This document shows, one piece after another, positions 12,499-59,403 of a DNA stretch of 64,000 nucleotides. Made by a program: the position numbers and the translations under genes. Location: IMG/VR virus record IMGVR_UViG_3300020227_000045, positions 1 to 64,000 of that record. One strand, 5' to 3'. Source of the stretch: a virus. Lineage: Duplodnaviria; Caudoviricetes. The notes under the pieces were generated by a model, which made no database searches, had not been told where the DNA came from, and saw only the letters and a list, made by a program, of their open reading frames with translations. Each line of letters begins with the position of its first letter. Within the stretch, counting starts at the first letter, position 1.

Positions 12499-12684
12499 AT
12501 TAATCCGTTGTCAAAAATTTATAAAACTCTATAAATTTTATTCCTTATTCAACGTACCCCTTTTTGAGTATTTCACTATAAATAGCTACTTCTGATTACT
12601 CTACTAAGGTTTGTGTGATACTCCAAAGGCTTAAATTCCCATACAACGAATGGTACATATATTTAGTATCGTGTTAGTGATATT
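12495..12684 (-). ncRNA. Putative TnpB omegaRNA scaffold (right end)
   Basis: GTACC..GGTAC and CCTTTGGAGTAT..ATACTCAAAAAGG stems downstream of tnpB. Confidence 0.65.
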
Positions 12685-13797
12685 CTAAATATTATAGTTA
12701 GCTAAATTAATACTTGCATTAAGGTCTCTATCAATGCTAAAACCACATTCACAGTTAAATACTCTGTCTGATAGTTTTAAGTCTTTATTAATGGTTCCAC
12801 AGTTAGAGCACATCTTACTAGAAGGAAAGAATCTATTTGCTATAACTAAGTCAATACCTTTATTCTTAGTTTTATACTCTAACTGTCTACGAAATTCATA
12901 GAAACCTTGTTTTTGTATTGCTTTAGCTAAATGTCTATTTTTCATCATACCGCTCACATTCAAATCTTCAATTACAATTCTTCTAGGTTTGGTTTTCACT
13001 ATAGAAGATGTAGTTTGATGTAAATGGTTTTTACGAGTATTAGACAATCTTCGTTGTAGTAGTTTGATTTCTTTTTCAAGTTTTATAATATTGCAAGTTT
13101 TAACAAACGTACTCCCTTCTTTATTGTTTTGGTATTTACGAGATACCTTACGTTGCAATCTACGTAATCTTTTTTCTAATTTTTTAGTTTTTACTGTTTT
13201 ATTTATATTACCATAAATAGTTCCATCAGAGCATATTGCTAGCTCTTTTATCCCTAAGTCAATACCTAAAGATTCATTTGTTAGTTCTTCATATTCATCT
13301 TCTTTTTCTATAGAAACACTTATATACCAATACTTACCATCGAAGGTAATCCTAGGGTTATAGTATTTAGTATCTGTAGGAAGTTGTTCTGAGGTTCTAA
13401 CCCAACCTATTTTTTCTAATAATACTAATTTTTCTTTTACTTTTAATTTTTGTGTATCATTATAGAAACTAGGTCTTGTTTTCTTTCTAGACTTAAATTT
13501 AGGAAACTTAGCTTGACCTTTAAAAAACCTCTTGTAAGCGTTACAAGAATCTTTAACTGATTGCTTAGGGATATTGTTACTTACCTCAGTTAACCAATTA
13601 AATTCTTCAGTTTTCTTAAGTTGAGTAATTTCTTTACGTAAAACAGAATCAGGTATAAATTTATTTCCTTGTTTATAATTTTCTTGTTGTTTTCCTAAGA
13701 CCCAATTATATATAAATCTTGCTGTTCCTGAAGATTTATATAACTGTTTTTCTTGTTGTTTAGTAGGTTTAATTCTAACTTTTTTAGTTATCATCAT
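12685..13797 (-). CDS. tnpB: RNA-guided endonuclease TnpB, 370 aa
   Basis: N-terminal HTH, GIDLG (RuvC-I), VIEDL (RuvC-II), CSNC..CEC zinc finger, DRDLNASINL (RuvC-III). Confidence 0.95.
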   Translation of the reverse strand: MMITKKVRIKPTKQQEKQLYKSSGTARFIYNWVLGKQQENYKQGNKFIPDSVLRKEITQLKKTEEFNWLTEVSNNIPKQSVKDSCNAYKRFFKGQAKFPKFKSRKKTRPSFYNDTQKLKVKEKLVLLEKIGWVRTSEQLPTDTKYYNPRITFDGKYWYISVSIEKEDEYEELTNESLGIDLGIKELAICSDGTIYGNINKTVKTKKLEKRLRRLQRKVSRKYQNNKEGSTFVKTCNIIKLEKEIKLLQRRLSNTRKNHLHQTTSSIVKTKPRRIVIEDLNVSGMMKNRHLAKAIQKQGFYEFRRQLEYKTKNKGIDLVIANRFFPSSKMCSNCGTINKDLKLSDRVFNCECGFSIDRDLNASINLANYNI

Positions 13798-29959: not shown

Positions 29960-32900
29960 TTAATCATCTAAAAAGAAATTATTATTGTCTTCATAGTTTG
30001 TATTAATGAATACAGAATCAAATTCATTTTCATTATTTTTAATGTACAAGTCTTCTAGACGTGATAGACCAATTCTAGCATATATACTTGCTTGACTATA
30101 GTGGTCATCGCCTTTTCTCTTGATTACTTGATACATTTCTTCTGTTCTACTATCTTCTTCATCTCTAATTACCACATTTTGCCAATGTTTAAGAAGTATA
30201 GCTTTATCGTTATCATTTTCTTGGTAAATTCTTATTCTTCCTGTTTTTAAATCTTGGATATAAATTTTGTTCTGCATTAATTTATCTACAGTAACAATAT
30301 TTGAATTCTCATTGAATACAGGTTTAATTTGTCCAGATGATTTAGGAGATGATTTGTAAGTACAACCAAACACAATATCTTCACCAAAGTATTGTTGAAG
30401 TCTTAGTAGGTTGTTTCCTGAATCTCCTGTATCTGCTACAATAATATCTGGATTATATTTAGAAAATTCTACACGTATTTGTTCTATATCTGATTCAACC
30501 ATATTAGGGTTTTTATTTCTTTTAACATTAAATAACCTAATTAAGTCTATCTTACCATCTTCGGTCATTCCATGTATAGTGCAATAATGAACATTTCCCC
30601 AATCCACTGATGCTGCGATAAATTTATAATCTCCTCTATTAAACATTTGTTTCTTAGCAATAGGAGATTGATTATCATAAATATCTTCTTGTAATACTTT
30701 CATCTTCTGGTCTTCATAAGGGAATCCTAGCGTGTAGTTATAAAACAATTGGGTTGATTCAGTGTTCATTTCTTTTTCTTTTAATTCACTAGCTGAAATC
30801 CAACATTTTTTGTTACGATTGAGTTCGTTATTCTCAACCTTCTATATATCGCTATATAAGTTCAGACTATATCTTTACCTTATCAAATGAGACTTAGGTA
30901 TCCTCTGTTTCGTGCTACTTAGCACTACTAATTAGTCGTTGCACGTTCTCTTATTACAAGAGCTTCGCTCATGATTATCTCTAATGAGAGACTTCCCATG
31001 AATTAAAAGGACTTCACTCTGTACATTTCTATATAGAGGGGCTTGGTTAACCGCATTTAGCTGTGAAATAAAATAACCTCTTGTTCCTTTTCCACCTTTA
31101 GTTCTTTCAGGGTACTTACAGTGCCATTCACCGTTATACCATCTATCTAGAAGTTTACCACATTTTTGACAAACAAATTGGTAACTTCCTTCTTGCACTG
31201 TTTTAGCCATCTCGTCAACACCTTCAGGATTGACTAATAGGATATTCCCACTCTTCTCTAAATTATCTGGGTCATAATCTTCATAACTCATTTCATTTAA
31301 GTAATCACAATGTGTACATCTATGACCATAATACCATTGGTCAGATTGCATGTAGAGTTTATGGATTCCCATATTTGGAGTCGTCTTAAACATTATTATT
31401 TTCATAATAAAATGGACTATCTCATAATCCTTATTTTTGGTTAAGGATTCTCTGCTTTACGAAATTAATCTCTTATCTGATTCTACCTTACTCCTTTTAG
31501 TAAGTTACTCAGAAATTTAGTCTCTAGGCATTTACAAGTATATAACTTGATTTAGCAATTGATTGTCTACAGCTTTACCTGTTTAGAGTTTCCAATTTTA
31601 ACAGAGTTTTTCAAAACAAATTACTTTGTTAAGCCCCACGATTTAACATAGGGGTACTCCAACGTCTTATAACCTTGAAAGGTGAACTTGACATTGATTC
31701 CATTGCTGATGATTCTGATGATGAAGGTACTCTATCATATTCCAAATTATACCGCTAGTTTCCTAGTATTTACTTACGGTTTAGACTATCTCATAACTAC
31801 TTACTTAGGTTAGTAGCTCCTTGCTTTACGAAATTAATCTCTTATCTGATTCTACCTTACTCCATTTAGTAAGTTACTCAGAAATTTAGTCGTTAGGCAT
31901 TTATCAGTTAATAACTGAATTTAGCAATTGATTGCCCTCAGCATTATCTGTTAGGGGTTTCCAATTTTAACAAGGTTTATACTGGACAAATTTTATCCAG
32001 TGACAAATAATCAATCATTTTTTTACTTAATACCCCTACTTTCGTAGTACTTTAACACTATTTAAATAGTGGGCTTAGACTATATCTTAGCTATTCATTA
32101 ATAGCTCCTTGCGTTACTTCTCTTTGAAAGAGTTTTTTTATCTAAAGTAATTTAGAAATTTAGTCGTTAGAGATTTTCCTCTACATAAAGTAGATTCTTT
32201 CCTACGGTATTCCCTCTATCCTTATAGGACTTAGGGTCTCTTACCAGCTACTTAAAGCTATGACCGTTTAGCAAGGTTTAACGTGAACAGATTATTTTAT
32301 CCACGCCTTCTAAAGCTTTAGGTGTAGAACTTGTTCTAAAGAACATACTTGAATTTCTTATTTGTTTATATTTCAAGGAATCATTATCTTGGTTAATTAT
32401 GCTTGCAAAATAAGGTTGTTGCAGTGTAGGGTTTATCCTACTTTGTACGAACTTTTGCATTTGATCACTGGTTGGGTCTAGGGTATACCGCTAGTTTCCT
32501 AGTACTTTAACACTTAATTAAAAGTCGGAGTAGACTATATCATAATCCTTATTTTCGGTTAAGGACTCTCTACGTTACGGATTAAATATCCTTTTATCTA
32601 GTTCTCAATATTCCCTTTTGAATATTTACCTAGAAGATTAGTCGTTAGGCATTTACGTAACTAAGGTATATATACCTTAGTTCGATTTAGCAATTGATTG
32701 TCCTCATCATTACATGTTAGGAGTTTCCAATTTTAGTAGAGTTATTCGATATACATTACTGTATAAAGCCTCCCCTAATTATTTGAAGGTGAACATACAT
32801 TTGACCGAATCTTTACTATGCGTATCTGCAAAGTGTAACATCTTATTGTATCCAACTTCACTTACGTTTATACCGTCACTTTCGTGATATTTATATACGG

Positions 32901-33750
32901 ACTAGACTATATCTTGATTGTATAAAGATAATTTTAATTACGGTTTATACAACCCCTTGCTTTACGAAATTAATCTTTTATACTGTTCTACACTCAACCA
33001 TTTATGAGCTTACCAGTAATTTTAGTCGTTCGGCATTTATCAGTTAGTAACTGAATTTAGCACAGGATTGTCCTCAACTTTACTTGTTAGGAGTTTCCCT
33101 GTTTAACAAGGTTTTACTTGAACAAATTTTTATCCAAGTTGTCTCGACTTAAGTACTGCTATGTTAGGATGTTTGTCATTACGTTTATACCGTCACTTTC
33201 GTGATATTTATATACGGACTAGACTATATCATAATCCTTATCTTTGGTTAAGGATTCTCTGCTTTACATTATTTATATTAAATAAATAACTATTATCTAG
33301 TTCTCAGTATCTCCTTTTAGATACCTACCTAGAAATTTAGTCGTTAGCCATTTATCTTAATTCTATTATAACATACACATTTAGTGTTGTCAATACTAAA
33401 ATTAAGAATTTAGGAAGGGATTCTCACTATCCGTTTGGACTTAGAGTTTCTTATCAGGATATTCTTTATTTTCCTATGCCCTTTTAACAGAGTTATTCGA
33501 TATACATTACTGTATAAAGTCACATTATTTATATGATAGCAATTTGCCATGGTCTATGAGCTTGAGCTTTACTTTTATCTCTATTTGGTATAGAAAAAGT
33601 AATATTATGACCACGTATTAAATTGTGTTTCAACATATAAGCAGTTGTACTAGACATTGTTAATACATAATCTAACTGTTCTTGGGTAACATTTGTAGTT
33701 CCATATGTGGATATGAGTAAGTCTTTTAATTGTTTTCCATCCATTTTCAT
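29960..33750 (-). CDS. terL: Terminase large subunit, split by 7 group I introns (605 aa after splicing)
   Basis: Exons 33750-33533, 33181-33132, 32864-32787, 32477-32299, 32015-31995, 31742-31650, 31384-31050, 30803-29960 sum to 1818 nt in frame: HRPWQIAII|NDKHPNIAVLKSRQLG|LSE..MFT|YPT..EGVD|IDYLSLD|EYDR..WSTP|TTPNMG..NAV|WISA; collinear with phage K terminase. Confidence 0.92.
30804..31049 (-). ncRNA. Group I intron terL-I7 (246 nt)
   Basis: GT|..ATG|TTGG junctions; P7 motifs. Confidence 0.88.
31385..31649 (-). ncRNA. Group I intron terL-I6 (265 nt)
   Basis: CCT|..AAG|ACG junctions; GAGACTA and GAGATAGTCC P7 strands. Confidence 0.88.
31743..31994 (-). ncRNA. Group I intron terL-I5 (252 nt)
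   Basis: Splits the Walker B region (SLD|EYD); P7 motifs. Confidence 0.9.
32016..32298 (-). ncRNA. Group I intron terL-I4 (283 nt)
   Basis: GAT|..G|ATT junctions, P7 motifs. Confidence 0.9.
32478..32786 (-). ncRNA. Group I intron terL-I3 (309 nt)
   Basis: U/G junctions, P7 motifs, frame restored (T|AC = Tyr). Confidence 0.85.
32865..33131 (-). ncRNA. Group I intron terL-I2 (267 nt)
   Basis: U/G junctions, P7 motifs, frame restored. Confidence 0.9.
33182..33532 (-). ncRNA. Group I intron terL-I1 (351 nt, no ORF)
   Basis: Upstream exon ends in U, intron ends in G; AACGACTA and GATATAGTCT P7 strands. Confidence 0.88.
33365..33393 (-). promoter_or_regulatory. Consensus sigma-A promoter inside terL intron 1
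   Basis: TTGACA-17nt-TATAAT, extended TG. Confidence 0.7.
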
Positions 33751-39754: not shown

Positions 39755-42730
39755 ATGGTTGCAAAACTCACAGAAAAAGAAGCAATAGCATTTGTCAAAA
39801 GTTTAGAAGGTAAGAAAATAGACTTTGATGGATGGTACGGATATTAACATAATGGTATCCTAACTCATTGAATTGACGGGAACCCCCTTAGAGCTTTAAC
39901 TACTAACTTATCATGGTGACATAGGTAAGGGCAAACAGTAATGTGTTTGGTAAAGTAAAAAAGTTAAAGATTGGGAAATCCGCAGGTAAGCTACTATGGT
40001 AACAGTAGTAGAAACTTCAACGACTAAATACTATCAATTGGTAGTTAGTGGTGAGTACTTGATAAAAGTTAAGTAATAATATAGTCTGTTCTTATAGGAA
40101 ACTATAAGAGTTACATTATACAATCAATGGTAGAAATATTATTGAGGAAAGATGATAACATAACAAAAAGCAATGTTTTGACCTAGCTAATGAATATTGG
40201 AATAAATTATTTGGCACAAGTCTTAAAGGTGTAGGAGCAAAAGACATACCTAATTCAAATAATTTTAAAGGTATAGCTAAGGTATATAATAATACATCTT
40301 CATTTAAAGCTAAACCAGGTGATTTGGTAATTTTCAACTCATCTTATGGTGGCGGGTATGGTCACGTAGCTATAGTTTTAAATGGAAATGCAGATGGAAA
40401 TTTAATGAAGTTTGTAAGTCTTGACCAGAATCAAATAAGGTTCCCTTTATATAGTAATATATAATTGAATAACACATTAAATTGCTGGAACCCCGTAAAG
40501 CTCAATTAACTACAACGTAATAGGAAACTATAAGCGTGAAAGTTAGGAAACTAGAAAAAATAATTGAGATACCATAAGCTGAGAAAAAGCTCAAAGAGTG
40601 CTAAGTGGTGAATAATCGGAAATCAGCATCCAAACCTACAAATAGTGGGGAGGTTCAACGACTATAATATGTGGCTCCTATAAGGAGTATGGTATAGTCT
40701 AGTCCGTAAATAAATACTAGGAAACTAGCGGTATAGACGTGGCAAGGCGGAGGATGGACAAGTGGTCCAGAAAAAGGTGGTACAGGTTGGGAAGCAGCAA
40801 CAAGAGTAACTCATCCATACGATTTCCCTATGTGGTTTATCAGACCATATTACAAAGAAGAGTCAAAAACAAAAACTACAAGTAAAAAAACAACAGCTAA
40901 GAAAAAAGCTAAAAAACTAACTTATATTCGTGATGAAGTAAAAGGTTATCGTTTACCTAATCGTGGATATAAGCCAAAAGGGATAGTTCTACACAACGAT
41001 GCGGGTAGTGCAGGTGCTACAGCTGAAGCGTACCATCGTGGATTAGTAAATGCACCATACTCAAGATTAGCTGCTGGTATTGCTCATTCTTATATCAGTG
41101 GTAACACAGTATATCAAGCATTACCAGAAAGCAGAGTAGGTTGGCATACGGCTTAATTTAGGTCATTTGTATAGTAATATACATCTAAATGTGTTTTAAT
41201 TCAGAGGAAGTCTAAACAATATAAGTTGTAGATAATTCTGAGCTAAGTTTATATTGACATATAATTATATTTATTGTATAATATTCATAGGAGGAGATTT
41301 TATGGAATTATACAAATTAGAAAATATTAAAGGTTTAGAAGAATTAAAAGGATACTCAATAGATAAAGAAGGTAACGTATACTCTCACAAATATACAACT
41401 TCGAATGGTAATACTTTTTATTATCATATATCAAATGAACCAGTTAAGAAATTAACTACTAAAAAAGATAGTAGAGGTTATATAAAAATAGGGTTAAACG
41501 GTAAAAGTTTATTCATTCATAGGCTGTTAGCTTTATTATTTATTCCTAATCCAGAGAATAAAGAACAAGTAAATCATATGAACGGTGTTAAAGATGATAA
41601 TAGAATAGAAAATTTAGAATGGTGTACAAACAGAGAAAATAGAATACATGCTATAGAGAATAATTTGTTAGATAACATACCTTATGGCATTTCTCAGTAC
41701 ACTAAAGAAGGGTTACATGTTAGAGATTATGATACTTGTTTAGAAGCTATAGAATACTTAGGCTTAGACAAAGGTGCTTCTGGAAATATAGGAAGATGTA
41801 TTAGAGGTAAAAGAAAAACAGCTTATGGTTATATATGGAAGTCAATATAAAAAAGTGCAACGACTATCCCTTAGGACGAGTGCCAATAAAAATAAATCGT
41901 CAACAGGAGTAGGGCTCAAGTCAATGGAGTGGGTGAAAATCCCTTAAATCGAAAAGGACACTTCCTTTTATAAGGAAAAGATATAGTCTATTCTTATAGG
42001 AAACTATAAGGAGTTCATAAGAGAACCAATAAAGAGTTACGAACTTTATTGAATATTAAAGAACCAAAATGGTAATAAAAATTACTATGGTATAGAAATA
42101 TGTCAATCTATAGGTGCAAGTGATAAAGTATTCTTAGCTAATGAACAAGCATCTTTCCAAGAAGCTGCTCGTTTATTAAATAAATGGGGATTAACAGCTA
42201 ATAGAAATACTATCCGTTTACACATGGAATTTTCTCAAACTAGCTGTCCTCATAGAAGTATGAAGTTACACACTGGTTTTGACCCTGTAACACAAGGCGT
42301 ACCTTCAAAAGCTACACAGCTTAAACTCAAAGACTATTTTATTAAGCAAATTCGTGCTTATCAAAATGGTAAAATACCAACTGCAACTGTTTCTAAAAAC
42401 ACTAGCTCTGCAAGCAATACAAAATCAACTGTAGCAGGAAAATGGAAACGTAATTCTTTCGGAACGTATTACATGACAGAAAAAGCTAGATTTACTAATG
42501 GTAATCAACCTATAGCAGCAAGAACAGTAGGACCTTTCAGAAGTTGTCCATTAGCTTATTGGTTCCAACCAGGAGGATACTGTGATTATGACGAAGTAAT
42601 GCTTCAAGATGGTCACGTATGGATTGGATATGATTGGCAAGGACAAAGATATTATCTTCCTATACGTACATGGAATGGAGTAGCTCCTCCAAATCAAGGT
42701 TTAGGAAACCTTTGGGGTTCAATTAAGTAA
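39755..42730 (+). CDS. Endolysin CHAP-Amidase_2-SH3b, split by 3 group I introns (477 aa after splicing)
   Basis: Exons 39755-39844, 40171-40431, 40740-41153, 42062-42730: WYGY|QCFD..LDQN|WQGGG..GWHTA|NQNGN; amidase and SH3b are LysK-like. Confidence 0.92.
39845..40170 (+). ncRNA. Group I intron lys-I1 (326 nt, no ORF), just before the catalytic QC of CHAP
   Basis: U/G junctions; CAACGACTA and TATAGTCT motifs. Confidence 0.88.
40432..40739 (+). ncRNA. Group I intron lys-I2 (308 nt, no ORF)
   Basis: AAT|..ACG|TGG; CAACGACTA and TATAGTCTAGTCC motifs. Confidence 0.88.
41154..42061 (+). mobile_element. Group I intron lys-I3 (908 nt) encoding an HNH homing endonuclease
   Basis: HTA|NQ site as in the phage K lysK intron; P7 motifs after the ORF. 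Confidence 0.9.
41302..41850 (+). CDS. Intron-encoded HNH endonuclease with NUMOD1-like C-terminus
   Basis: [30 protein letters not shown]; own TTGACA-17-TATAAT promoter and GGAGG RBS. Confidence 0.88.
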   Translation: MELYKLENIKGLEELKGYSIDKEGNVYSHKYTTSNGNTFYYHISNEPVKKLTTKKDSRGYIKIGLNGKSLFIHRLLALLFIPNPENKEQVNHMNGVKDDNRIENLEWCTNRENRIHAIENNLLDNIPYGISQYTKEGLHVRDYDTCLEAIEYLGLDKGASGNIGRCIRGKRKTAYGYIWKSI

Positions 42731-51032: not shown

Positions 51033-53706
51033 ATGTCTAACCAAATGTTCGGAGGACATCTAGACCCATACGAAACAACAGATAACTATGAGTACCCTTA
51101 TCACCCAGCAGGTAATCCTAAAAAGATAGATAAATCAGAAGTAGAATCATATACTCTAGCTGATTATGGTTGGACACCTGAAGCTATCAAAGAACATTAC
51201 ATGTATGGTATAAGGGTACAAAACCCTGAAACAGGTAAAGAAATGGATGATGCTTTCTATTATCATGTATTTGAAGTGGCTATAGATAAAGCAGAAAAAG
51301 CATTAGATATATCTATACTACCTGATTTCCAAGATGAACAAAGAGACTATTATGAACAAGACTTCAATAGTTACATGTTTGTTCATGCTTATAAAAAACC
51401 AATACTACAAGTTGAAGGATTACAATTACACTTCAATGGTAGACCAATATATAAATATCCAGCTAACTGGTGGAAAGTACACCATGTAGATGGACAAGTA
51501 CAGTTATATCCAACAGCTTTAATGCAAGTAGGACAGGGAGCTAGTTATTCTAGTGCGGTGAGTGGTTATCCTTATCTAGCAGGTATGATGCCACCACAAG
51601 GTAATACTTATGCTCCTCAAATGATACATTTAGAATACATTTCAGGTATGTTACCACAGAAAAGAGCAGGCGTAACTAAACCATGGGAATGTCCTACAAG
51701 TTTACAACAATTAGTAATTAAATACGCACTTAAAGAGATATACCAAGTATGGGGTTACGATGATATTACCCTGTGTGTAGCGTAAGTTGCACATTTTCAA
51801 AGGTTAACTGCTAAGAAATCCTAAAGCTAACTAAACTACAAAGTAATCTGAAAGGATAGGCTTGAATGTTGAGAAATCAGAAAAAATTAGTTAGATACTC
51901 TAAGGTTAAATCCTAAGGAGAAGAGCAATGGAAGTTTAGCATCGAAAGTCCTAAGTCAATAGATAAGGAATACGTTCAACGACTATTCTGTATAGACGAC
52001 AGAAGTAAAGCTCCAAGTGATTGGGAGAAGAAAAATCTTTACCCTAGTCTTAGGGATAACAAATAGTCTGCACACGTCTTGAAAAAGAGTGCTAGGAATT
52101 GACCTAGACTTATTTAGTAGCGTAAGTAAGGAAACAATGTTAATTAAATGAAAACTTCCTATTGAAATTACCCCAAGTATATGTTATATTATAGGTATAA
52201 TATATATAAGGTGGTGAAAGTAAATGAAAAAAACGGAAAATAAATTTTATAGAGGTATAATACTAAAAGTAAACCCTACACAAGAACAAGAAGATTTAAT
52301 GTGGAAACATGTTAATCACTCAAGGTTTATTTATAATTATATGTTAGAAAGATATTGGGAAGCTTTAGATAGTGATAAATATATAGACTATAAGAATATG
52401 CTTTCTTTACTTAAGGAAATGAAAAAAGAAGATGATTATGATTTCTTAAATGAAGTATCTAGAAAAACTTTAGTTGGTAAAATAGATGATTTAAGAGAAG
52501 CTTTAATAAAGTACCATAATCATGAAATAAGAAAACCTAAATTTAAGTCTAAAAAGAGAGAACCTAAACGTTTTCCAATTAGATATGACCGTATGCACTT
52601 CAGTAAAGAAAAAAGTGTTAAGGTTGAGAAGTTAGGCTACTTAAGAATTTCTAATGGAACATATAAAAATAATAAATCAGTACTTGAGAATGAAAACATT
52701 AAACCTTTAAATCCTAAGTGCTATTATGACGGTAAATATTGGTATGTATCATTTTCGGTAGAAGTAGATAATCAATACAAAAAAGAAAATGATAACACTG
52801 ATGAAGTTGTAGGAATAGACTTAGGTAGTGGTAAAAAACACGTAATTTGTTCTAACAGAAAAATATATGGTAATATTATTTATTCTAAGAAAATGAAAAG
52901 GTTAGAAAAAAAAATATCTGACCTACAGAAAAGATTAAGTAATAAATATGATATTAACCACACCAAAACAAATAATGTTTTAAAGCTAGAAAATAAGATA
53001 GCTAAAGTTTATAGGAAAATGTCAAATATCCGTAAAAATCATGTACATGAAATAACAAAAGAAATTGTTGAAAAGTATCCTAAAGAGATTATTGTAGAGG
53101 ATATAAGAGTTCGTGATTTAATAAAAGACAGAGGATATACAGGACAAAAAAGAAAAAAAATACAGTTTTCTAATTTCTATATGATTAGACAGCAATTACA
53201 ATATAAATGTGAAGATAGAGGTATAAAATTTACAGTAGCTAATACTTATTATCCATCATCACAAATATGTAGTAATTGCGGAGAAAGAAAAAGAAATGCT
53301 TTAAAATTACAGTTAGGTGATAAAGTCTTTAAATGTAATGCTTGTGGATATGAAGAAGATAGAGATATTAATGCAAGTATTAACTTAAAAAATTACCATA
53401 AATCTCAATGGTTAAAAGAACAAAACCAATAATATGTTTGCTTTTAGTAGGGTTCTATAACCCGAAAATATAATGCCTTTTATTTTAAGAAGGAAGTTAA
53501 TTTAATTAACATATGGTAATCTCATTATCGGTGCAGGAATAGCAAACAAATCACTAGATGTTGATGGTATTAGTGAAACAATCGGTACTACTCAATCAGC
53601 TATGTATGGTGGAGCTAGTGCTCAAATACTTCAAATAAATGAAGATATTGGAGAACTACTAAAAGGTCTACAATCATACTTTGGTACCAACATGGTAGCT
53701 ATCTAA
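51033..53706 (+). CDS. Conserved head-completion/neck protein, split by an IStron (303 aa after splicing)
   Basis: Exons 51033-51754 and 53517-53706 join as KEIYQVWG|NLIIGAGIANK, collinear with the phage K gene two downstream of capsid. Confidence 0.88.
51755..53516 (+). mobile_element. IStron-like element: group I intron fused to a TnpB-only IS607-type module
   Basis: P4 (TGCTAA/TTAGCA), P7 (AACGACTA 51986-/AATAGTCT 52122-), tnpB in the 3' part, GG at both junctions, precise removal restores the host ORF. Confidence 0.85.
52224..53432 (+). CDS. tnpB: RNA-guided endonuclease TnpB, 402 aa (IStron-encoded)
   Basis: GIDLG, IVEDI, CSNC..CNAC, DRDINASINL; all three RuvC acidic residues present. 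Confidence 0.93.
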   Translation: MKKTENKFYRGIILKVNPTQEQEDLMWKHVNHSRFIYNYMLERYWEALDSDKYIDYKNMLSLLKEMKKEDDYDFLNEVSRKTLVGKIDDLREALIKYHNHEIRKPKFKSKKREPKRFPIRYDRMHFSKEKSVKVEKLGYLRISNGTYKNNKSVLENENIKPLNPKCYYDGKYWYVSFSVEVDNQYKKENDNTDEVVGIDLGSGKKHVICSNRKIYGNIIYSKKMKRLEKKISDLQKRLSNKYDINHTKTNNVLKLENKIAKVYRKMSNIRKNHVHEITKEIVEKYPKEIIVEDIRVRDLIKDRGYTGQKRKKIQFSNFYMIRQQLQYKCEDRGIKFTVANTYYPSSQICSNCGERKRNALKLQLGDKVFKCNACGYEEDRDINASINLKNYHKSQWLKEQNQ

Positions 53707-53719
53707 AGGAGGAATATAG

Positions 53720-54601
53720 TTGGAAAAGAGTTATAAATTAACAAGTAGTAGAGTAGATAAAGTTAATCCTTCTATAGCTAATGATACTTCCTATTCTCCT
53801 TTAGAAAAAGAAGAACCTAAAACATCAACAGCAAAATTAGAATTTGACACAAAAGATATGCGTAGGTTTATGAATGATAGAGGTATAAAAGTTCTTTGGG
53901 AACAAGCATACCTCTGCCCTTGTTTAAATACAAAAACAGGAGCACCTAGAATAGATTGTCCTAGATGTCATGGGTCAGGTATAGCTTATCTACCACCTAA
54001 AGAGACAGTGATGGCTATTCAATCACAAGGTAAAGGTGTAAGTGTATTTGACTTAGGTATTATGGAGACAGGTACTGCTATAGGTACAACACAACTAGAA
54101 CATAGAATATCTTACAGAGATAGATTTACAGTTCCAGATGTAGTAATGCCACAACACATGATTTTCTTAATAACAGAAGATAGAGTTAAAAAAGGAATAT
54201 CATTAGTATATGATACAAAAGAAATTGTATATATAACAACAGATGAACGTGTCTTATATGAAGAAGATTATACAGTAAAAGATAATAGACTATATTTAGA
54301 TAAATCATTCATAGGACAAAACGTATCTTTAAAAATATATATGACTTTAAGATATACTGTTTCAGATATATTAAAAGAAAGTCGTTATCAATATACACAA
54401 TTCAATGAACCTCAAACTAAATTTGAAAATCTACCTCAAAAACTACTCTTAAAAAGAGAAGATGTTTTTGTTAAACCAGAAGCATATAAACCTAAAGATG
54501 GTATTAATGAAGATATACAAATAGATGATGTTATAGATGACCCTAAAGCTAAACCTACAAGTCAAGAAAATAAAGGTGGATTCTTTGGTGGTGGTTTATA
54601 A
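53720..54601 (+). CDS. Conserved virion/neck protein
   Basis: CPC..CPRCHG motif; Twort-like morphogenesis operon position. Confidence 0.75.
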   Translation: MEKSYKLTSSRVDKVNPSIANDTSYSPLEKEEPKTSTAKLEFDTKDMRRFMNDRGIKVLWEQAYLCPCLNTKTGAPRIDCPRCHGSGIAYLPPKETVMAIQSQGKGVSVFDLGIMETGTAIGTTQLEHRISYRDRFTVPDVVMPQHMIFLITEDRVKKGISLVYDTKEIVYITTDERVLYEEDYTVKDNRLYLDKSFIGQNVSLKIYMTLRYTVSDILKESRYQYTQFNEPQTKFENLPQKLLLKREDVFVKPEAYKPKDGINEDIQIDDVIDDPKAKPTSQENKGGFFGGGL

Positions 54602-58136: not shown

Positions 58137-59403
58137 ATGGCAAGTGAAGCTAAACAGTCCATTCACACTGGTAATACCGTCTATCTCATGATTAAAGGTA
58201 AAATTGTAGGCAGAGCTCAATCAGCTTCAGGTACTCGTGAATACGGTACTGAGGGCGTATATGAAATTGGTTCAATTATGCCACAAGAACACGTTTACCT
58301 TAGATATGAAGGTACGGTTACAATAGAAAGATTACGAATGAAAAAAGAAAACTTCGCAAAATTAGGATATGCTTCTTTAGGTGAAGAAATCCTTAAAAAA
58401 GATGTTATCGACATTTTAGTTGTAGATAACTTAACTAAGAGTGTAATCATAGCATACCATGGTTGTAGTGCTAATAACTATAAAATTTGTAGCTTTAGGA
58501 AGTAATTCCTATCGAAAAACTTTTCTAAACAGGGAAACCTAAGTACAATTTGTATAAGGCAATCCTGTGCTAAATTGACTTAATCAGTCATAAATGCCAA
58601 ACGACTAACAGAAACCTATTCATATAAGTGAAGGGAGTAAGAGTACAGCCAAGTGGTCAAGGTGTTGGGTAATAACCAAATAAATCCTTGTTAAATGGAA
58701 AAGAAAAGAATCCTTAATATAAAAAGGATTATGATATAGTCTCATCTATATGGAAACATATAGCAGTTCTAAAAGAACGTACAATGATTAACGACCATTG
58801 TAGAAGTAAATGGATGAAGAAATTAATACCAATGAAATGATTACAGAAAGTATTGAGTAGGTAAAAAGCTCCTATAATCAGAAATGGTTATAGCAAATCT
58901 CTCTAATTCATGGAAACCCCTAACAAGTAATGATGAGGGCAATCATGAGCGAAGCTCTTAAAACAAGAGAACGTGCAACGACTAGTCTACGGACGTACAA
59001 TCAAGTGATTGGAAATGGGAGACACCTTCAATTTTAAGGTGATGATATAGTCTGAACTATATGGAAACATATAGAAGGATAGAATTAACGATTCTATTCG
59101 TAACAAAATTGTTTCTTATCTTACAGCATTAAATTTCTAGTGCCCTTATACAGTAATGTATATTGAATCAATCCTCTAATTCAGGGAAACCCTAAACGAA
59201 ATTAAGACGTAGGCAATCCTGAGCCAAGCCTATAATTAGGAAGGTGCAACGACTATCTCTAAGGAGAGTACGCTCAAGTGAGTGGAAATGGGGATTATCC
59301 TATACAATATAGGATAGTGATATAGTCTGGACTATATGGAAACATATAGAAGGTTAGGAGTAACGAACCTAATCGTAACATAATCGCAGATAAAGCATCA
59401 TAA
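58137..59403 (+). CDS. Tail tube protein, split by 3 group I introns (141 aa after splicing)
   Basis: Exons 58137-58481, 58813-58858, 59112-59129, 59387-59403: CSANNY|DEEINTNEMITESIE|FSYLTA|SDKAS. Confidence 0.92.
58482..58812 (+). ncRNA. Group I intron tube-I1 (331 nt)
   Basis: U/G junctions, P7 motifs. Confidence 0.88.
58859..59111 (+). ncRNA. Group I intron tube-I2 (253 nt)
   Basis: U/G junctions, P7 motifs. Confidence 0.9.
59130..59386 (+). ncRNA. Group I intron tube-I3 (257 nt)
   Basis: U/G junctions, P7 motifs. Confidence 0.9.

Follow-up and report, generated by a model that had tools for sequence, protein, structure and literature searches.

The window analysed here (64,000 nt, positions 1 to 64,000 of the IMG/VR virus record IMGVR_UViG_3300020227_000045) comes from a Twort-like Staphylococcus myovirus and contains a virion structural gene that is interrupted by a 1762-nt insert with an intact tnpB gene. 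The insert is very probably an IStron: a group I ribozyme at the 5' end is fused to an IS607-family tnpB, and the ends of the element coincide with the splice sites. Taken as a whole, it is probably a TnpA-less IS607-type (group B) IStron in a virulent Staphylococcus myovirus that splices out of the virion mRNA, has its tnpB and a guide RNA transcribed separately and spreads by homing. That the homing is guided by RNA is a narrower claim, and we put its chances a little below even. The IMG/VR record is 74.5 kb long and about 51% complete, and the closest relative of the window phage is vB_SurM-PSU4 (PSU4), of the genus Baoshanvirus.

The split virion gene

Exon 1 of the virion structural gene, which is conserved in the Herelleviridae, spans 51033-51754 (240 codons plus 2 nt) and, like every other feature of the element and its exons, lies on the plus strand. 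In the list of open reading frames (ORFs) the unspliced exon 1 frame runs from 51033 to 51785, with a stop codon at 51783-51785. Exon 1 matches PHROG 772 (E 1e-94) at profile positions 4-241 of 305. Exon 2, placed by alignment to the PSU4 gene, spans 53517-53706 and supplies 1 nt, 62 codons and a stop. Uninterrupted homologues of 303 amino acids are found in PSU4, Twort, ISP and Listeria phage P100, with genes of 882-912 nt, and the ISP homologue is annotated as structural, confirmed by mass spectrometry.

The window and the intron-free PSU4 gene are 96.9% identical up to 51758 and 95.8% identical from 53515, with nothing aligned between. A first-pass annotation had claimed that 1762 nt break a conserved virion gene at GG|T, and this alignment bears the claim out. 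The insert occupies 51755-53516 and follows directly after TATGGGG. The last base of exon 1 is G51754 (..GTATGGGG) and the first base of exon 2 is T53517 (TAATCTC..). Joining the two restores the frame and gives ..Q-V-W-G-N-L-I-I-G-A-G.., the same residues as in PSU4, Twort, ISP and P100. Its placement is ambiguous from -2 to +1 nt, GG|T being present on both sides of the junction, and only two registers give an intron-final G. The choice of register was limited to these because a group I intron requires a final G, which here is G53516.

The group I ribozyme

The first ~380 nt of the insert are, on the strength of the predicted fold, a group IA2 ribozyme, and splicing would be expected of it. 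The IA2-type core (51755-52136) was derived with RNAalifold from covariation among 11 copies of the 5' part, which represent six insertion sites and come from five Staphylococcus phages and the Clostridium phage D-1873. Compensatory changes support 58 of the 92 predicted pairs and occur in P3, P8, P7.1, P7.2, P9, P9.1 and P9.2. None of 500 shuffles matched the observed pairing values. When P7 (51977-51986 with 52062-52070) is added as a pseudoknot, 96.4% of the alignment cells of the fold are paired, compared with 37-47% when the partners are slid by 1-3 columns. The P7 strands, ACGACUAU with AUAGUCUG, are invariant across the copies and therefore uninformative for covariation. Both P7.1 (51987-52003) and P7.2 (52011-52027), which are the hallmark of the IA2 class, are present in the fold; these two helices, P7 and P8 (52042-52055) are given by motif coordinates. 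The fold also contains P2 (51773-51794) with a GUAA loop, P9 (52071-52091) with a GAAA loop, P3/P8, a P4-P6 domain, P9.1 and P9.2.

The P1 helix and 5' splice site (51751-51772) pair exon GGGG and the first intron U (51751-51755) with the guide ACCCU (51768-51772). Across the copies P1 is 96% paired, and exon position -3 forms a GC pair in 6 copies, an AU pair in 3 and a CG pair in 2. The internal guide tracks the exon of its host gene, with GGGG/CCCU, AAGG/CCUU, GCGG/CCGU and GAGG/CCUC all represented. In 11 of the 11 copies the final base of the exon is a G paired with C, and the usual exon-final U, in a U.G wobble, is absent. A 5' exon that ends in G rather than U had been pointed out in the first reading and is confirmed. 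A G-C pair at the 5' splice site is the documented exception of group B IStrons (PMC4227781, PMC13565253). The ribozyme is 75% identical over 114 nt to an annotated group I intron of Clostridium phage D-1873.

TnpB, its promoter and the long-range stem

The tnpB gene (52224-53432) encodes an intact protein of 402 amino acids. All of the RuvC catalytic residues that it had been said to possess are there (D199, E292 and D379), together with CxxC motifs at 349 and 371 that form the zinc finger. The protein matches the Pfam families OrfB_IS605, Cas12f1-like TNB and HTH_OrfB. It scores 243 bits against the NCBIfam model guided_TnpB (cut-off 100) and 139 against the narrower IS607_TnpB, which is below the cut-off of 350. 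Its best relative of solved structure is the IS607 TnpB of ISFba1 (8IAZ; E 9.6e-43, residues 14-390), and ISDra2 TnpB is matched with E 4e-20.

The full 402-codon ORF is found in all sampled TnpB-positive copies. The ratio of nonsynonymous to synonymous divergence (dN/dS) is 0.11-0.14 against the Stau2, CIFT28 and DH2 copies, with synonymous divergence (dS) up to 0.57, and the range holds against DH2 (dS 0.5-0.57) and for the RuvC half alone. The gene is a mosaic. Positions 52300-52800, the N-terminal half, share 86% identity with the Silviavirus elements at this site, and the rest of the element shares 98-100%. The N-terminal half of the protein has ~85% identity to the TnpB of an IStron in the tail-lysin gene of SapYZU04, and the C-terminal half ~50%. 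This pattern suggests recombination among IStron copies.

A sigma-70-type promoter with an extended -10 element, TTGAAA-17-TATATT with TG, is located at 52162-52190. It scores 10/12, is the top match within 51700-53750 and has the -35 and -10 boxes named in the first-pass annotation. It is kept at the same place in all aligned family copies and is annotated as a promoter in the portal-gene copy of Romulus. A ribosome-binding site follows at 52208-52216, and the stretch from tnpB to exon 2 contains no predicted terminator. The promoter would drive tnpB and read through the right end of the element into exon 2.

Upstream of the promoter is the 5' strand of a long-range AT-rich stem (52137-52159), which pairs with 53492-53512 and closes a loop that contains tnpB. 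The duplex has a predicted energy of -19.2 kcal/mol, compared with a mean of -4.0 for shuffled sequences. An equivalent stem of differing sequence is present in all six family copies tested.

The right end and its predicted target

The right end (53433-53516) is an 84-nt compact tail that resembles an omegaRNA or right-end RNA (reRNA), contains the 3' splice site and terminates in ..CATATGG. Alignment of tails places in it a nexus hairpin SL1 (53450-53463), a stub of the RAGATH-18 outer stem (53476-53493) and SL3, which is also the 3' strand of the long-range stem (53492-53512). A pseudoknot pairs the loop CUAUA (53455-53459) with UAUGG (53512-53516). This pseudoknot covaries over 8 sequence versions: the pairs CCGUAA/UUACGG, CCAUGA/UCAUGG, CCGUA/UACGG, CGUUG/CAACG and CGAUACA/UGUAUCG are found in the family, and the insertion site in the virion gene (site A) has CCAUA or CUAUA with UAUGG. 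The element ends in TGG rather than CGG because the nexus loop carries a compensating change.

Between the window and the copy in phage DH2 the tail is 95% identical, the ribozyme is 83% identical and synonymous sites differ by ~40%. Minimal ORF-less introns at site A do not have the SL1 hairpin. SL1 is thus dispensable for splicing and is therefore best explained as an RNA feature related to TnpB. RAGATH-18 itself is found in five relatives with scores of 62-68 bits, 30-110 nt past the stop codon. The first reading took the right end to be both a 3' splice site and an omegaRNA. The splice site is retained in our analysis, but a standard omegaRNA is not, with RAGATH-18 reduced to a stub.

By analogy with CboIStron (10.1101/2023.11.20.567912) and ISFba1 (PMC11061315), exon 2 is predicted to supply the guide with its first 20 nt (53517-53536). 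A TGGGG that resembles a transposon-adjacent motif (TAM) adjoins the predicted target in the empty allele. A blastn search of INPHARED with the 54-nt spliced junction gave PSU4 as the best contiguous match (52/54), and the empty alleles of ISP, Twort and P100 match the guide less well than that of PSU4.

Family and distribution

We file the element, from the features of its sequence, as a TnpA-less group B (IS607-type) IStron. Copies are inserted after NNGG (GGGG, AAGG, TGGG, GCGG, AGGG or GAGG; here TGGGG), begin with T(A/T)A and end with (C/T)GG. The end is CGG in five copies and TGG in the window and in the portal-gene copy. Group B IStrons are known to insert after a site ending in GG (AGGG/TGGG/GAGG) and to have CGG at their 3' end (PMC4227781), and CboTnpB recognizes the TAM TGGG while the CboIStron scaffold ends in UCGG (10.1101/2023.11.20.567912). 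The ends, the NNGG target, the G-C pair at the 5' splice site and ISFba1 as the nearest solved relative lead to the group B placement. The first-pass annotation had named an IS607-type IStron from the GG at both junctions and the TGGG upstream, and the ends, the target and the affinity of TnpB support it.

Related copies split at least six Staphylococcus phage genes. In Silviavirus and other Staphylococcus phages these are the virion gene, the gene at a second site (site B), a recombination nuclease, the tail lysin, the portal gene and an SbcD-like nuclease. A structural gene of Fusobacterium phage Fnu1 and a gene of C. botulinum phage D-1873 are also split. The ribozyme has 5-7 matches in each Silviavirus genome, and ribozyme, tnpB and tail occur together at six sites. 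The version with the compact tail is known at site A only. At site B (LSA2308, Romulus and SapYZU04) a related intron follows ..AAAAAAGG and a 289-aa ORF begins ~520 nt downstream; this ORF may be exon 2 or a different gene borne by the intron.

The novelty first claimed for the element was overstated. Over 20 public Silviavirus genomes (SA11, Stau2, StAP1 and others) have the same element at the same site, labelled only 'transposase', and group B IStrons of C. botulinum phages have been published (PMC4227781). A search of IMG/VR with the TnpB protein alone returned the SA11 record as its single match. The intron at site A is present in 48 phage records and in three states: with tnpB (1760-1765 nt), with tnpB deleted (524 nt, the last ~35 nt of the ORF and the tail being retained) and minimal (~437 nt).

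The element had also been described as lacking tnpA, and in agreement with this no resolvase or TnpA was found in the 74.5-kb record, ~51% of a complete genome, nor in three of the four Silviavirus genomes searched. TnpA-less copies are common in the described family (PMC4227781). SapYZU04 (OP432864.1, ~114.4-116.2 kb) has a separate autonomous IS607-like unit that adjoins a DNA polymerase A fragment. It consists of a 196-aa TnpA with a MerR helix-turn-helix and a resolvase domain, overlapping a 368-aa TnpB, and has no match to Rfam RAGATH-18 or to an intron. This unit could supply TnpA in trans to the phage IStrons.

Transfer between phage genera

The flanks of the insert and the insert itself have different relatives. 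The flanks share 92-99% identity with PSU4 and only 60-80% with Silviavirus. With the Silviavirus copies at site A the insert shares 86-100%, and its ribozyme agrees at 99.5% with the one in phage CIFT_MFB_MRSA28. The sequence on the 5' side is PSU4-like right up to the junction. On the 3' side positions +4 and +7 of exon 2 are of the donor type (TAATCTC compared with TAACCTT in PSU4), and the sequence is PSU4-like again by +35. The crossovers are located within 0-14 nt of the intron on the 5' side and 7-34 nt on the 3' side. A third lineage, the S. pseudintermedius phage DH2, has the element at the same site with 86% identity.

Because the flanks are PSU4-like, the intron is Silviavirus-like and the co-conversion tract in exon 2 is short, the sequence comparison indicates a recent transfer into the window phage from another phage genus, and the window lineage looks like a fresh invasion. 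Crossovers so near to the intron, in DNA that matches poorly, may be the trace left by homing induced by a break, as judged from two informative sites. IS607 TnpB cuts 16 and 22 nt from the TAM, which is the exon 2 side (PMC11061315), and exon 2 is also the side on which co-conversion is seen.

Proposed mechanism and alternatives

The mechanism that we propose begins with the late pre-mRNA of the virion gene, in which the 5' ~380 nt would fold as a group IA2 ribozyme. The long-range stem would return the distant 3' end to the ribozyme core, and splicing after G51754 and G53516 would restore the 303-codon gene. The internal promoter would transcribe tnpB and the 84-nt tail into exon 2. The candidate guide RNA would use the tail as its scaffold and the first ~20 nt of exon 2 as its guide. 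TnpB with this RNA would cut the intron-free allele next to TGGGG, ~16-22 nt into exon 2. In a co-infection, the intron would then be copied in as the cut is repaired with the intron-bearing genome as template. How could one stretch of RNA be both an intron to be removed and a guide to be kept? The two promoters may provide the answer. The late transcript contains the ribozyme and would splice, and an early sigma-70 transcript, with neither the ribozyme nor the 5' strand of the stem, would yield TnpB and guide RNA. In its fullest form, that of an active homing TnpB whose natural mini scaffold of 84 nt has no RAGATH-18 core, of RNA-guided intron homing between virulent phage genera and of an intron/guide conflict solved by two promoters, the proposal is a tentative one and more doubtful than RNA-guided homing by itself.

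The weakest link is the RNA-guided activity, since the tail has no RAGATH-18 core, and several observations weigh against it. RAGATH-18 (RF03064) gave no match in the tail even at E<=10; the Rfam matches returned there and, at E<=1, for the whole region were at chance level only (RsaA, RyhB and others). Compared with tails of the Fi4S2 and SapYZU04 types, the tail is a Fi4S2-type tail minus ~62 nt of the RAGATH-18 core. The ISFba1 scaffold is 187 nt long and includes a RAGATH-18 motif of 73 nt; PK1, a pseudoknot in which this motif takes part, is essential for cleavage (PMC11061315). We regard the prospect that TnpB functions with the short scaffold as not quite an even one. The guide had been predicted to cut 'exactly' the intron-free allele, and no known allele matches it perfectly. 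The best is the PSU4 empty allele (18/20), with mismatches at positions 4 and 7, both proximal to the TAM, and ISFba1 TnpB is sensitive to mismatches (PMC11061315). An exact search of IMG/VR returned 0 perfect empty sites and there was none in INPHARED. The donor-type bases of exon 2 allow another explanation as well, since T at +4 and C at +7 also strengthen a potential P10 helix and might have been selected for splicing. Part of the selection signal in tnpB may derive from its history in other elements, given the mosaic.

Splicing has points against it of its own. The Rfam group I model RF00028 gave no match to the element even at E<=1. It also misses 8 related loci at E<=0.1, among them the D-1873 copy, a group I intron by its GenBank annotation, and for this reason the negative result reflects the model and says little about the intron. 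RF00028 does find five other introns in the window. The ribozyme core that the first-pass annotation had seen in the first ~400 nt is supported by its covariation. Among public sequencing runs, at least half of the sampled sequence words occur in one alone, a plant metagenome that may be the source. Runs labelled as RNA contain 5-13% of these words and gave no spliced junction in the four compared at the SA11 locus, where the contigs were of uncertain RNA or DNA nature. The same four runs showed an ORF-less Silviavirus copy in which a joint skips 1328 nt of tnpB, a deletion at the level of DNA.

The alternative that survives best is that the element is a decaying IStron. The ribozyme would splice, TnpB would have no working guide RNA and be heading to the deletion that sister phages already show, and the element would persist as a plain intron, having been moved between phages by ordinary recombination within short identical patches of the exons. 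It accounts for the loss here of RAGATH-18, a motif present in relatives and essential in ISFba1 (PMC11061315), for the series at site A from 1762 to 524 to ~437 nt and for the want of a perfectly matching empty target in IMG/VR and INPHARED. It does not sit well with a dN/dS of 0.12-0.14 over a dS of ~0.55 in three lineages that are all short-tailed. Nor does it explain why the tail is the most conserved part, with SL1 and the pseudoknot retained though dispensable for splicing, or why the crossovers are so close to the intron despite flanks of 60-80% identity. We consider decay unlikely, if a serious candidate.

It has also been considered that TnpB is kept for another job, such as the use in trans of reRNA from a second TnpB element, the tuning of splicing through the tail or interference with competing phages. 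A second TnpB with a full RAGATH-18 (12541-12629, minus strand) is present in the same genome, TnpB binding modulates splicing of the C. botulinum IStron (10.1101/2023.11.20.567912), and tnpB is under purifying selection in spite of the short tail. However, the two TnpB proteins are 40% identical, and a guide supplied in trans would miss site A. The catalytic residues are intact, unlike those of domesticated nuclease-dead relatives of TnpB. Another job for TnpB is therefore improbable.

The existence of ORF-less versions of the same intron could suggest that tnpB is an independent insertion sequence nested in an older ORF-less intron, in which case its ends would fall within the intron and the guide would be intron sequence and not exon 2. 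In every family copy, however, the tail runs to the 3' splice site and the final 5-7 nt of the intron take part in the pseudoknot. Ribozyme, tnpB and tail also travel together at six sites, and the ORF-less forms retain a 3' remnant of tnpB, which makes them deletions and not ancestors. A nested insertion sequence is very improbable, and as a candidate it was ruled out by the geometry of the tail and pseudoknot and by the tnpB remnant. Least probable of all is that nothing splices and the virion protein is truncated or made as two polypeptides, an idea favoured by the missing RF00028 match and opposed by the strong group I covariation, the exact restoration of the frame, the lack of an in-frame start codon or ribosome-binding site of its own in exon 2 and the uninterrupted state of the gene across the Herelleviridae.

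Comparison with known systems

Described group B IStrons include BcISt1 of the Bacillus cereus group, CboIStron of C. botulinum and copies in C. botulinum phages (PMC4227781; 10.1101/2023.11.20.567912). The window element resembles BcISt1 and CboIStron in its 5' IA2 ribozyme, in a tnpB located toward the 3' end, in insertion after TGGG-like sites ending in GG and in an exon-final G paired to a C of the guide. AT-rich complementary segments flank the ORF in both, the right end acts as 3' splice site and guide scaffold (the latter predicted here) with a pseudoknot from the nexus to the 3' end, and TnpA-less copies are common. The copy in phage D-1873 can be aligned to the window element, with the 114-nt ribozyme match given above and a TnpB that is 37.6% identical. 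The window element differs in having a strictly virulent myovirus as host and in the essential virion and replication genes that its family targets. It ends in TGG and not CGG, the RAGATH-18 part of its scaffold is deleted, there is no TnpA in the 74.5-kb record, and its tnpB has a strong conserved promoter of its own. Its spread appears to be homing at one site across phage genera and not transposition within a genome.

The TnpB of ISFba1 (8IAZ, PMC11061315) shares with the window TnpB the RuvC triad, the zinc finger, a G-rich TAM and a guide RNA located just downstream of tnpB, the last two being predictions for the window element. ISFba1 has its 187-nt scaffold and no intron, whereas the window tail has 84 nt and only a stub of the RAGATH-18 outer stem. 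Phage group I introns with homing enzymes, such as T4 td with I-TevI and the HNH introns of Twort and phage K, are similar in that the intron is in an essential phage gene and is patchy among relatives, that the adjacent exon is co-converted and that the ORF passes through gain, decay and loss. In the window element the ORF of the intron encodes a homologue of RNA-guided RuvC nucleases, not an HNH, GIY-YIG or LAGLIDADG enzyme, and the determinant of recognition would be the intron's 3' end together with the exon.

Other elements in the window

The second TnpB of the window (363 aa) is encoded at 12541-13779 on the minus strand and has no ribozyme. The full Rfam RAGATH-18 downstream of it scores 60 bits, and its nexus loop CGUUGU pairs with ..ACAACG, which puts the right end at ..GACAACGG. 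The five other group I introns found by Rfam are at 58471-59349 (plus strand; three in tandem within ~900 nt), 31393-31659 (minus) and 32883-33141 (minus). A blastn search inside the window with the IStron ribozyme gave a single match, 83 nt at 40496-40578 with 76% identity. Rfam also matches the Staphylococcus small RNA S808 at 42295-42549 (plus strand; 85 bits, above the gathering score).

Significance

Work on IStrons has mostly dealt with the chromosomes of clostridia and Bacillus, in which the presumed role of TnpB is to retain a transposon moved by TnpA. Silviavirus phages are used in therapy research. A 2026 review has suggested intron homing as a possible way for TnpA-less IStrons to spread, including from one co-infecting phage to another (PMC13565253). 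In a literature search that was incomplete, no natural case of RNA-guided intron homing was found described, and Staphylococcus phages were not mentioned in the IStron papers covered. The Silviavirus literature notes split genes, group I introns, RAGATH-18 and 'transposases' and does not connect them. The element is of a known class and present in public genomes; new as variations are its setting, the way it appears to spread and its truncated guide scaffold.

The window element belongs to an IStron family, mostly TnpA-less, in virulent Staphylococcus myoviruses, and it behaves as a mobile intron with a would-be RNA-guided homing enzyme. A test system is available, with a donor phage group, PSU4 as a naive relative, a defined target and a natural series of introns that are TnpB-positive, tnpB-deleted and minimal. 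A short tail that proved functional would amount to a naturally occurring miniature scaffold for the guide of an IS607 TnpB. In phage genomics, 'transposases' of this kind mark spliced genes that are left as fragments in current annotations.

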